A stretch of DNA of 64,000 nucleotides from IMG/VR virus record IMGVR_UViG_3300037325_000203, one strand, 5' to 3'. Both the position numbers and the translations under genes were made by a program. The stretch is from a virus. The notes beneath the pieces are model-generated. The model was given only the letters and a program-made list of their open reading frames with translations, was not told the DNA's origin and ran no database searches. Position 1 is the first letter of the stretch, and each line of letters starts with the position of its first letter. Of this stretch, positions 10,957 through 15,864 are shown in pieces.

Positions 10957-11820
10957 ATGCATAAATACTTGCGTATGAACAATACCCTCGATGAAATGAT
11001 CGAAGCAGCACTTGGTTCCAATTCTGGGACCAGCAAATTCTTGCACCAAAAAAACTCAAAAATAAGGAGCACAACCTTGAGTAAAAACCGTAAAATGACT
11101 GAAAAATCGTCACCGCACATTCGTAATTCTCGCGAAGAACATTCCACGAATAATATAGTTAAGCTGGGGAATAGAAATTACAAACGTGTAGAAATGTTGC
11201 CCAGAAACACGGCACAAGAAACTTACGTAGAAGCACTAATGGAAAAGCGAATGGTATTTGCTGTAGGACCAGCTGGTACTGGCAAAACACTACTGGCAGT
11301 ATTACGCGCAATCAAGGCACTTAGAGAACAAGAGATTACTAAAATTATACTGACCCGACCGGCAGTAAGTGTGGACGAGAAGCACGGATTCTTGCCAGGC
11401 GACTTAAACGCAAAAATGGAGCCGTGGACACGCCCTATATTTGATGTGTTTGAGGAATATTACGGCGTACCCGAGACTAAACGTATGCTAGATGAGGGTA
11501 TTATCGAGATTGCTCCATTGGGATTTATGAGAGGTCGTACATTTAAGAATGCTTACATCATCGCCGATGAAATGCAAAACGCTACACCAGATCAAACCAA
11601 AATGTTACTAACTAGGATTGGCGAAAATAGTAGTATGGTGCTAACAGGTGACTTAAGACAGCATGACAGGGGATTTGAGAAAAACGGTCTAAAAGACTTC
11701 TTAGACAGGTTCGCAACTAACAAATCCAAATCCATGGCAGTATGTACATTTAGGAGAGAGCACATTGAGAGAGATCCATTAGTTTCAGAAGTATTAGGTA
11801 TCTACGGGGAAGATGATTAA
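10957..11820 (+). CDS. phoH: PhoH family ATPase (start uncertain)
   Basis: GPAGTGKT, LTRPAV, GFLPGDL, FMRGRTF, DEMQN, LLTRIGE. Confidence 0.95.
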   Translation: MHKYLRMNNTLDEMIEAALGSNSGTSKFLHQKNSKIRSTTLSKNRKMTEKSSPHIRNSREEHSTNNIVKLGNRNYKRVEMLPRNTAQETYVEALMEKRMVFAVGPAGTGKTLLAVLRAIKALREQEITKIILTRPAVSVDEKHGFLPGDLNAKMEPWTRPIFDVFEEYYGVPETKRMLDEGIIEIAPLGFMRGRTFKNAYIIADEMQNATPDQTKMLLTRIGENSSMVLTGDLRQHDRGFEKNGLKDFLDRFATNKSKSMAVCTFRREHIERDPLVSEVLGIYGEDD

Positions 11821-11840
11821 TATATAATTATACTCTTAAG

Positions 11841-11865
11841 AAAGGCGACATTAGTTCGTCTTTTT
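11841..11865 (+). terminator. Probable phoH terminator
   Basis: AAAGGCGA-cattagt-TCGTCTTTTT. Confidence 0.65.
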
Positions 11866-11871
11866 AATGAC

Positions 11872-12426
11872 TATAGTTTCTTTAATCTATTGGAGATCCT
11901 GTAAGCGACAGTTTGCTATATTTAATCACAATATGCCATAAGTGAACAACGACGTTAAACGTATAATAGATAGGCTGATGGTAGAATCATAGAAAGGGTA
12001 TGTGAAAAACACCCACAAAAAAATGCGGAATTTTCCACATGCTCTGACAGCTTCGTCATAGACTGAAACACGAACTTTAAACAGTGTTGGATTGATTATG
12101 TCAACTGTATCCTTGTGGATGTCGTGGATGGGCTCCGTAGAGTCACTGCAATTGCCATTTGTTTTCAGTCACTTGTGGCGCAGCTTACCGGGCATACCTT
12201 TCTTTTACATACCGGTAACAAACTTTATTTTTATCTGATGCTACATTCTCTGCGGATTCCGCAGTATACGATTAACGACAATATGTATGTCGGGAACATC
12301 ATGCCCCGTGAGAGCCCACGGGTTAACCATCCATATTACTGTCGGCTTGAGTAGTGACCGCTATTAGGCAATTTATCTCGGTGCAATATTAATTCGGCGC
12401 ACTAACCTTATAACTCTATAACTATA
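11872..12426 (-). ncRNA. Candidate large structured non-coding RNA, family unassigned
   Basis: No credible ORF; many hairpins, long-range helices and loop pairings; G-U wobbles favour the minus strand. Confidence 0.6.
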
Positions 12427-12504
12427 TCGTGTACTATTTGTTAAACAATTTCCTTTAGAAAAGCCCGATAATAAAATTACTGCCGGGCCACTTGTACATT
12501 ATTG

Positions 12505-13113
12505 TTATGCTATATTGTATTCTTTACATACCATATCGTATATTTCTTTCCATGGTGTTTCGTAACTTACTTTAGGAAATAGATCAGTGTGATAATGTGT
12601 GTTGTAAGGATGATTTATTAGTACAGTCTTTAGTCCTACTTCATGACCGGCTTCGGCTTGCCTCATGTGATCCTCAATCCAGAAATATCCCGTATCCGCC
12701 CACCTTTTGAGAATTTCTGCTTTGCCTGAACCCATTGTCAGACAATTGATCTCATCAAACACATCACCGAATAAGTTTTTAAGATTCTCTGTTCGATATT
12801 CATGTGCACAAGGGTGGTCGCTTAGACTGGTTACAACGATGAATTTAAATCCCAGATTTGCTAGTTTCATAACATTGTCTAGGGCGTCGGCAAACACACC
12901 TAGGTTCTGAATGAGCTTGCTCTCGTTGAATTCCTTTACACACTCGAATGACTGACGGGAGCTGATACCATGTCTTTCAGATATGTTATAGTGATCTTCT
13001 GTGCCTGGAAGTCTGGGGAACCCCTTTTCAGACATATATAAATCGAAGCCGTTGTTCCAGTTGACTAACACACCGTCACAATCTGTTAATATAATTTTTT
13101 CTTTATTTGCCAT
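12505..13113 (-). CDS. HAD-family 5'-nucleotidase-like phosphatase
   Basis: DCDGVL motif I, WIED motif IV, PYN. Confidence 0.85.
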   Translation of the reverse strand: MANKEKIILTDCDGVLVNWNNGFDLYMSEKGFPRLPGTEDHYNISERHGISSRQSFECVKEFNESKLIQNLGVFADALDNVMKLANLGFKFIVVTSLSDHPCAHEYRTENLKNLFGDVFDEINCLTMGSGKAEILKRWADTGYFWIEDHMRQAEAGHEVGLKTVLINHPYNTHYHTDLFPKVSYETPWKEIYDMVCKEYNIA

Positions 13114-15015: not shown

Positions 15016-15328
15016 CCTTTATCATAATATCACCTGATGGCAACTCCATTTCTTTAGTCTTCGGTGTAGCCGATTTCGTAGGGGCACTTGCAATCTGCTT
15101 TACAGGTTCAGGCGGCATTCTTCCTTTAAGACCAGTAGAAACAATCGCAGTTTTAATACTATGACTATCTCTGGCAAGATCATCGGCAGTCCTAATAATC
15201 TTGCCACCCTTGATTTGATCGCCCCTGGCATTAACTGGCATGTTGCCAATTGCAGTTACTTTTTCATTTTCTCTTCGAATGGAATCCATATCTATAGTGG
15301 TTCCCCTAAATGTTACGTGTCTACTCAT
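14990..15328 (-). CDS. Hypothetical protein
   Basis: ORF, GNMPVNARGD segment. Confidence 0.55.
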   Translation of the reverse strand: MSRHVTFRGTTIDMDSIRRENEKVTAIGNMPVNARGDQIKGGKIIRTADDLARDSHSIKTAIVSTGLKGRMPPEPVKQIASAPTKSATPKTKEMELPSGDIMIKDENENKSI

Positions 15329-15864
15329 TTTAAATAATCCTTAATGTCTAACTTATATTTAATGGAGTCAACCCTGTGTACTCCGATTAAATACAATATG
15401 TAGGAGGATACACTTGATCCGCGACCCACTCCCCATACTGATTTGTTTTTCCTCATGTGATCTACCAGAAATATAAAAAGTCTCAGAAGCATGACAAGGT
15501 CCCTGTCTTGGTATAACTTATATTCCTCCTCGACTCGGTCTCTTTGCTGCTGTGTATTGCATTTATCTAAAAGCCATGCTGACACATCTATTTGTTGATA
15601 GATCATCGGAAACACCCATTCATTTGCATGATCTTCATGAAATTCATCGAAGGACTGAATTTCGTCTGGCGCCGGCAAAAATGTAATAGTATCGAGTATG
15701 AGCTCAGACTGATACTTCTGAAATTGATGTATTTCCTCATCAAAAACAACATTCAGATGGCTTATGTTTCTTCCCTGTAAAAGTAATTCTTTGAGATTTT
15801 CACTCGATAGTATGGCTTGTCCATACATGTTTACTTTTACTCCTCTACTTTTTTTGGTTTCCAT
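15325..15864 (-). CDS. Stand-alone fragment of DNA polymerase III alpha (DnaE-like)
   Basis: RVEEEY...WGVGRGSSVSSYILYLIGVHRVDSIKYKL matches the family C GRGS region; only 179 aa. Confidence 0.85.
   Translation of the reverse strand: METKKSRGVKVNMYGQAILSSENLKELLLQGRNISHLNVVFDEEIHQFQKYQSELILDTITFLPAPDEIQSFDEFHEDHANEWVFPMIYQQIDVSAWLLDKCNTQQQRDRVEEEYKLYQDRDLVMLLRLFIFLVDHMRKNKSVWGVGRGSSVSSYILYLIGVHRVDSIKYKLDIKDYLK

Follow-up and report, generated by a model that had tools for sequence, protein, structure and literature searches.

The conserved block beside phoH

The stretch of DNA analysed here (the window) is 64,000 nt long and comes from the IMG/VR virus record IMGVR_UViG_3300037325_000203. Between two convergent genes, phoH and a gene for a protein of 202 amino acids (aa), it holds a gene-free gap of 684 nt (11821-12504), and a preliminary description of this DNA had proposed that the minus strand of the gap encodes a large, pseudoknotted RNA. 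Comparison with more than 60 homologues upheld the proposal, as the structure, the strand and one of the proposed pseudoknots are backed by covariation. By these comparisons the minus strand of 11972-12418 encodes a conserved structured RNA, a member of what we call type A, and at ~447 nt it is shorter than the ~550 nt first suggested. The features of the locus are the following:

10957-11820, plus strand: phoH (Pfam PhoH, E 3e-69)
11841-11866, either strand: hairpin flanked on each side by T/A runs (plus-strand fold z = -3.43)
11972-12418, minus strand: the conserved RNA block
12421-12448, minus strand: weak sigma-70-like promoter candidate read from sequence (TTGTTT, 16 nt, TATAGT)
12462-12489, minus strand: terminator-like hairpin GGCCCGG..UCGGGCU (-12.3 kcal/mol), then UUUUCU, 3' of the upstream 202-aa gene
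12505-13113, minus strand: 202-aa gene, PHROG 420 (function unknown), with the DxDG motif of HAD-type phosphatases

The search for homologues started from phoH-anchored loci of IMG/VR, using nhmmer and blastn. A homologous block of ~450-500 nt adjoining phoH was found on 10 distinct contigs with 72-78% identity, and the nhmmer profile matched the window at 11927-12418 (E 1.5e-130). In three alignments (A1, A2 and A5) the conservation spans ~12418 to ~11972. The homologues share no open reading frame (ORF), the longest frames in some relatives being 50-62 aa, and a protein-coding reading of the block was rejected as no ORF common to the relatives could be found; the 79-aa ORF at 12115-12354(+) had no Pfam match. 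A covariance model, R1, was built from 30 sequences including the window. It describes a core of 191 positions that covers helices H5, H6 and H7, a three-way junction with an invariant loop, and a repeat named X (all listed below). To enlarge the set, a sequence pattern derived from the best-conserved part was searched first and R1 second. This gave 62 distinct core sequences besides the ten adjoining phoH; in all, homologues occur in over 70 distinct phage sequences of environmental origin, on viral or metagenomic contigs that come from lakes, sediments, peat and soils. R1 matches the window at 12042-12225(-) over model positions 1-191, a full-length core match (177.6 bits, E 4e-46); the window being in the model, this match is partly by construction, and the independent evidence lies in the matches to loci that were not used. 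A second scan with the motif of the H5 loop gave 2 new members among 62 new loci and no divergent subfamily.

Between 6284 and 14621 the window encodes, in this order, a ClpA/B-like protein (738 aa), a DnaJ-like protein (272 aa), two structural proteins, PhoH, the HAD-like 202-aa protein, a 120-aa protein and a clamp loader, the gene for the latter lying farther upstream of the 202-aa gene. The order is that of gp298-gp291 in the Pseudomonas jumbo phage PA5oct and marks the window as coming from a PA5oct-like jumbo phage. PA5oct is the closest cultured relative (clamp loader identity 53%). Judged by position, its gp293 is the counterpart of the 202-aa gene, and at the syntenic spot it has only 82 nt from gp293 to phoH. 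The 202-aa protein, encoded 5' of the RNA, bears at its start a DCDGVL motif typical of HAD-type phosphatases or nucleotidases.

Covarying helices and pseudoknots

Covariation was scored by counting the cells that pair and the double (compensatory) changes, with a control in which the 3' partners were slid by 1-3 columns. In the MAFFT core alignment A3 (30 sequences, 52 pairs) 90.9% of the cells pair, versus 33-48% after sliding, and double changes occur in 38 of the 52 pairs versus 16-19; its covariation score was reached by none of 500 shuffles. The 62 distinct sequences of the model-aligned core (A4) gave 91.5% pairing with double changes in 37 of 48 pairs. For the 15 full-length type A sequences (A5) under a 97-pair model the figures were 89.0% versus 37-42% slid, and 55 pairs with double changes versus 13-20. 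Gathering the phoH-adjacent regions of related phages, as had been suggested at the outset, yielded compensatory changes well over the slid controls. The column pairs of highest mutual information are almost all Watson-Crick partners. Because G-U pairs outnumber A-C pairs 278 to 27, the minus strand is the folded strand, which agrees with the minus-strand bias noticed beforehand in the window. The folding energy lies below the shuffle mean for the segment first proposed, 11872-12426 (z -1.41 for the minus and -1.17 for the plus strand), and for the trimmed block 11972-12418 (z -2.21), values that are unremarkable.

The alignments show at least 14 conserved helices, predicted to fall into a 5' domain (H1, H2, Ha, H3 and the H4 multibranch), H5, H6, H7, a three-way junction and a 3' hairpin. 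From 5' to 3' on the minus strand the elements are:

12381-12402 (-): H1, hairpin GUGCG/UGCAC; double changes in 4 of 5 pairs, e.g. GUGC/GCAC to GCGA/UCGC
12349-12379 (-): H2, outer GAG/CUC (3 of 3 pairs covary) and inner AUUGC/GCGGU (4 of 5)
12325-12347 (-): Ha, local hairpin that includes UGGAUGG; found in single-sequence folds of type A relatives with differing sequences
12305-12322 (-): H3, hairpin CCCGUG/CACGGG with an RGCUUC-like loop; covaries (CCGCCG/CGGCGG, CCACUA/UAGUGG and others)
12236-12301 (-): H4, multibranch stem UGAUGUU/AGCAUCA enclosing H4a (12276-12292) and H4b (12250-12264)
12185-12218 (-): H5, hairpin UUACCGG/CCGGUAA; all 7 pairs covary, with pairing in 100% of the cells across 62 sequences
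12194-12203 (-): 5' strand of candidate pseudoknot PK2, AGAAAGGUAU, the 3' half of the H5 loop; pairs with 11991-12001
12145-12184 (-): H6, two-part stem with the PK1 5' strand in its loop; 9 of 11 pairs covary, 96-99% of cells pair
12163-12170 (-): 5' strand of pseudoknot PK1, GACUGAAA; pairs with 12061-12068
12133-12142 (-): H7, hairpin CUC/GAG; 3 of 3 pairs covary, 100% of cells pair
12069-12126 (-): three-way junction of H8 (CACGA/UCGUG), H8b (AUCC/GGAU) and H9 (ACAGU/ACUGU)
12086-12103 (-): H9 loop of 18 nt, nearly invariant (UGACAUAAUCAAUCCAAC); in all homologues, a few with GAUAU or GAAAU for GACAU
12061-12068 (-): 3' strand of PK1, UUUCAGUC, just 3' of the three-way junction
12044-12060 (-): repeat X, UAUGACGAAGCUGUCAG, possible 5-bp hairpin; one-sided changes only, 83-87% paired
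12000-12040 (-): H11, long 3' hairpin; covaries in type A
11991-12001 (-): 3' strand of candidate PK2, AUACCCUUUCU, AUACC(C)UUUCU with one C bulged
11975-11990 (-): repeat Y, UAUGAUUCUACCAUCAG, possible hairpin of 4 bp, where the conserved block ends; 75% of cells pair

Four local hairpins named in the preliminary description (12305-12322, 12276-12292, 12250-12264 and 12185-12218) exist and are kept in relatives by compensatory changes, and a fifth, 12023-12040, is superseded there by the longer conserved H11 (12040-12000). Ha pairs 12347-12343 with 12329-12325; one homologue (L015) is without this segment. Since UGGAUGG is the 3' arm of this local hairpin, re-made with other sequences in relatives, the long-range pairing UGGAUGG:CCAUCCA had to be given up. 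The same applies to the pairing of the loop GGCUCU with GGAGCC, the latter sitting in the local, covarying H7 (CUC/GAG, 12142-12133). The H4 stem around H4a and a variable distal branch appears in 14 of 15 type A single-sequence folds (L189 folds differently), with changes from GAUG/CAUC to GGUG/CACC and GUAACG/CGUUAC. The loop of H5 is conserved (GGUAUGUGAAA..AGGUAUG). In H8 all six pairs covary, and 12124:12071 is the top mutual-information pair of the whole alignment; in H9 100% of the cells pair. The sequence of the H9 loop occurs once in the window, where chance would give no occurrence, and neither a second copy nor a complement of it was found within the window.

Other pairings did not survive the comparison. 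The end-to-end helix UAUAGUU/AACUAUA proposed for the window reaches outside the conserved block on the 3' side, where conservation stops near 11972. A terminal 5'-3' helix of 10 bp in the minimum-energy fold of the window is not kept by the relatives; a shorter terminal pairing, GGU(U)A:UACC, is 83% paired, which is weak support. An RNAalifold long-range helix (154-160:532-539) was dropped, as it clashes with the covarying H3 and H4. In one type A homologue (L165:1-89) the 3' hairpin forms a long, almost perfect palindrome, which plant and animal microRNA-precursor models of Rfam match spuriously.

PK1 is the long-range pairing GACUGAAA:UUUCAGUC (12170-12163 with 12068-12061) that had been proposed from the window, where all 8 bp are present, and it joins the loop of H6 to the strand 3' of the junction. 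Its core of 5 bp covaries across the family (CUGAA/UUCAG, UUAUA/UAUAA, CUAAA/UUUAG), with pair counts of CG 42/UA 12, GC 44/AU 12 and AU 47/UA 11, and type A retains the full 8 bp (96.6% paired). The PK1 pseudoknot is well supported by these counts. Of the three long-range pairings first put forward it is the one that stood; the other two fell, and a second candidate pseudoknot, PK2, is put forward here. In PK2 88% of the cells pair, the pair 12201:11993 switches with the subtype (CG 20/AU 6), and one homologue (L036) holds compensatory changes. Most positions never vary and support is accordingly limited, so that PK2 is plausible only.

X and Y are short repeats, each of which comes after a pseudoknot strand. 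In 57 homologues these direct repeats change together in identity and not in complementarity, both being GUCA, GUCG, GGCA, GUGA or CCCA. This co-change suggests one partner that binds both, or alternative pairings. With their loops and pseudoknot strands, H5/PK2/Y and H6/PK1/X look like a duplicated module. In all, about 70 nucleotides are invariant, many of them unpaired: the H9 loop, the H5 loop, CCCAUCC/CCCUUCC, AUACCCUU and AAGUUUG. So many invariant and often unpaired nucleotides suggest that the RNA makes tertiary contacts or has a conserved partner, as ribozymes and the RNAs of ribonucleoproteins do.

Subtypes, neighbours and transcription

The family comprises two subtypes. Type A, the kind found in the window, is ~450-490 nt long, follows the gene for the HAD-like protein of ~200 aa and faces phoH. 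Type B, of ~390 nt, has no Ha and only part of H4; the gene before it is endolysin-like, and the one it faces encodes a 191-aa protein. In most type B copies H7 has an additional inner hairpin, and the place of H11 is taken by a short covarying hairpin (CCAA/UUGG, CUAA/UUAG, UCGA/UCGA). The flanking proteins of the two subtypes are unrelated. A common neighbouring protein for the RNA was rejected for this reason, the upstream proteins included, and the comparison shows that the predicted RNA is independent of any one neighbouring gene. Directly 5' of the type B start lies a conserved A-rich stretch (AAACCCAAATCT ... AAAGCAMAATTTTC ... CACAWTRT; e.g. L178:1000-1139 and L133:5460-5540(-)), which may serve as a phage promoter or else belong to the RNA, extending its 5' end.

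In the window the RNA would start near 12413-12416 if the promoter candidate at 12421-12448 is used. This candidate is under the threshold of the promoter scan and is not conserved in relatives; no promoter common to the relatives turned up, so the RNA may instead be processed from the upstream operon. The hairpin 12462-12489 would terminate transcription of the 202-aa gene; its energy is within the range of shuffles (z -1.57), and in relatives a hairpin likewise lies 15-35 nt upstream of the RNA. On the other side the hairpin 11841-11866 is the phoH terminator, and a longer primary transcript of the RNA may run to this two-way terminator.

This arrangement would also suit a cis-acting element at the 3' end of the upstream operon, blocking 3'-to-5' exonucleases or insulating the convergent units and having no function in trans. 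Both subtypes follow a same-strand gene and abut a convergent one, and, besides the missing conserved promoter, the upstream hairpins leave little room in several relatives. We nevertheless regard such an element as unlikely. Protection of a 3' end asks for far less than some 70 invariant and largely unpaired nucleotides together with two pseudoknots and a three-way junction, the upstream genes differ between the subtypes, the terminator-like hairpins part the upstream gene from the RNA, and syntenic relatives do without it.

Those relatives are PA5oct and the phage of locus L001, in both of which the RNA is missing at the same spot, and it is because these close syntenic relatives lack it that we take the RNA to be an accessory cassette. 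Three complete genomes with terminal repeats (G001-G003, 365-385 kb; the contigs of L011, L025 and L020) carry one type A and one type B copy each, on the same strand and 182-196 kb apart, about half a genome; a fourth complete genome with terminal repeats has type B only. The spacing recalls a replication origin or an origin-primer RNA such as ColE1 RNA II or the T4 R-loop origins, the origin being an alternative already named in the preliminary description. DNA synthesis would then be started by the folded transcript or by the folded DNA itself, and the direct repeats X and Y, which change together in identity, would be iteron-like protein sites. Like the RNA described here, the ColE1 and T4 origin transcripts are folded RNAs beside a possible site of action. 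In contrast to those, the RNA described here is an accessory element, its locus shows no turn of the GC skew, and neither a DNA unwinding element nor a gene for an origin protein was identified. Pairing that is kept through G-U on one strand only fits RNA and not duplex DNA; moreover, the three genomes are relatives, so that their half-genome spacing is one observation. An origin function is thus very unlikely.

Six type A loci have a gene for a 105-118-aa protein on the same strand 3' of the RNA:

L011:5098-5424 (-): 105-118-aa gene
L015:5076-5405 (-): 105-118-aa gene
L002:4903-5220 (-): 105-118-aa gene
L025:4925-5281 (-): 105-118-aa gene
L023:1527-1880 (-): 105-118-aa gene
L189:1634-1975 (+): 105-118-aa gene

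The protein is conserved and has an N-terminal membrane helix and the motif DARYAHAADVEKDK. Its gene lies 155-213 nt past the modelled core, or ~80-135 nt past the conserved end of the RNA, a distance at which the RNA might serve as a riboswitch-like leader that senses a ligand or factor, with X and Y as alternative pairing partners. Identity covariation of two segments is indeed what competing alternative pairings produce, and in type B the 3' domain contains three strands that are compatible with one another. A leader function is highly improbable all the same: the window and nearly all type B loci have no same-strand gene downstream, what may be the membrane-protein gene is kept by L001 without the RNA, and a third strand complementary to X and Y was not found. 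In L001, the ORF in question is of 110 aa and is possibly the same membrane-protein gene, by size and position.

Neither type A nor type B queries gave a blastn match in 50,697 GenBank phage records, and R1 found no such RNA in PA5oct, RaK2, 121Q, Atu_ph07, SCTP-2 or Phosso. A 28-nt match of R1 inside a coding gene of SCTP-2 was read as chance. The sole pattern match in the genomes of 185,579 prokaryote species, on a 241-kb contig of a metagenome-assembled genome, was not confirmed by R1. These scans show the predicted family to be confined to uncultured PA5oct-like jumbo phages.

Relation to known RNAs and proposed role

Rfam 15 gave nothing at the gathering threshold in the whole 64 kb. At E<=10 the region 11700-12600 drew four chance-level matches of 14-19 bits, with neither RNase P RNA nor tmRNA among them, and at E<=5 nothing recurred at the RNA in 14 homologues, the lowest E values belonging to the microRNA-precursor models on L165. 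ARAGORN found no tRNA or tmRNA in the 64-kb window. The lack of tmRNA, RNase P and tRNA signatures noted in the preliminary description therefore holds. Group I and group II introns gave no Rfam match, and on each side the RNA is flanked by the 3' end of a complete gene, the two genes being convergent. Mimicry of, or antisense to, the 16S, 23S and 5S rRNA of E. coli was rejected as unsupported, the matches being of 8-11 nt and at chance level (e.g. AGGGUAUGGCU in 23S, E 0.6).

The preliminary description had left the choice between a divergent ROOL or GOLLD RNA and a new class, and it is the second that stands, with no Rfam match to ROOL or GOLLD in the window or in the 14 homologues. ROOL (RF03087) and GOLLD (RF01998) resemble the RNA described here in being phage-borne, several hundred nt long and rich in conserved helices and pseudoknots, and in having neither an assigned function nor a fixed neighbour gene. 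They differ from it in that no match to their covariance models appeared at any threshold tried, and in that its hosts are uncultured PA5oct-like jumbo phages of freshwater, sediment and soil metagenomes. GOLLD often adjoins tRNA genes, whereas no tRNA gene was found near the RNA in the 64-kb window or in 28 homologous loci. ROOL, GOLLD and OLE were shown recently to form unprecedented RNA-only homo-oligomeric assemblies, among them cages (10.1101/2024.12.08.627333). PA5oct itself has, elsewhere in its genome, four ORF-free transcribed regions of 236-619 nt, ncRNA001-004, two of them abundant throughout infection (PMC7318152); R1 has no match in the whole PA5oct genome, and no structure is described for ncRNA001-004.

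Could the RNA still be a very divergent form of ROOL, GOLLD, OLE, RNase P RNA, tmRNA or a group I or II intron? Its size, its phage setting and its ornate pseudoknotted fold are comparable, and PA5oct-like and RaK2-like phages are related (PMC7318152). Set against the Rfam and ARAGORN results, against flanks that are not split exons and against the failure of R1 to match anything in RaK2, 121Q or PA5oct, the chance of this is very small indeed. A word look-up with the RNA likewise brought up no look-alike window. We conclude that the RNA probably represents a genuinely new class among the large structured RNAs of phages, distinct from ROOL and GOLLD. What is new is the class, orphan ornate phage RNAs in general being already known.

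We propose, with a probability of roughly 0.85, that 11972-12418 (-) is the gene for a non-coding RNA of ~450 nt that belongs to a family not in Rfam and has a stand-alone fold acting in trans. The RNA would be made as its own transcript, or be cut from the end of the upstream minus-strand operon, and its three-dimensional fold would let it bind a partner or possibly work as a ribozyme. Contact would most likely be made by the invariant H9 loop and the co-varying repeats X and Y, and the RNA would not be a switch for a neighbouring gene. To our knowledge, bacterial or phage RNAs of more than ~400 nt with this much conserved tertiary structure are rare, and those whose function we know of are nearly all ribozymes or ribonucleoprotein cores.

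Several points weigh against this proposal. The RNA is a prediction from sequence, and no cultured phage appears to carry it. The folding energy by itself is weak (z -1.4 to -2.2), and the case rests on covariation. The promoter is weak and not conserved and the terminator-like hairpins of relatives are only 15-35 nt upstream, so the RNA could be the processed 3' end of the upstream operon. A leader role may apply in the six type A loci with the downstream 105-118-aa gene. The mode of action is purely inferred, no partner protein or target having been identified. Finally, the newness is relative to Rfam 15; besides it there exist over 10,000 unnamed candidate viral RNAs in an uncurated catalogue (PMC10690425).

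A more specific version of the trans-acting RNA can be offered tentatively, although we think it doubtful. The RNA would be a new functional phage RNA, possibly catalytic or a decoy, built from a duplicated module in which a hairpin loop is followed by its pseudoknot strand and this by a repeat of a short motif (order a b ... b' X ... a' Y), and it would show the 18-nt loop and the two co-evolving motif copies, X and Y, to a partner. Candidates for this partner are a dimeric protein, an RNA of the host and a small-molecule signal. If true, giant phages would use RNA, and not protein, to capture or process a host factor.

A further, unrelated class of large phage RNA lends itself directly to structure determination and to the question of what use giant phages make of RNA. 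The alignment and the core model R1 allow the family to be annotated in metagenomes, and the identity-covarying repeats X and Y are a concrete handle for finding the partner.

Elsewhere in the window, a 179-aa ORF at 15325-15864 (-) aligns with no more than part of the DNA polymerase III alpha NTPase domain (PF07733) and may be a split or fragmentary polymerase gene.

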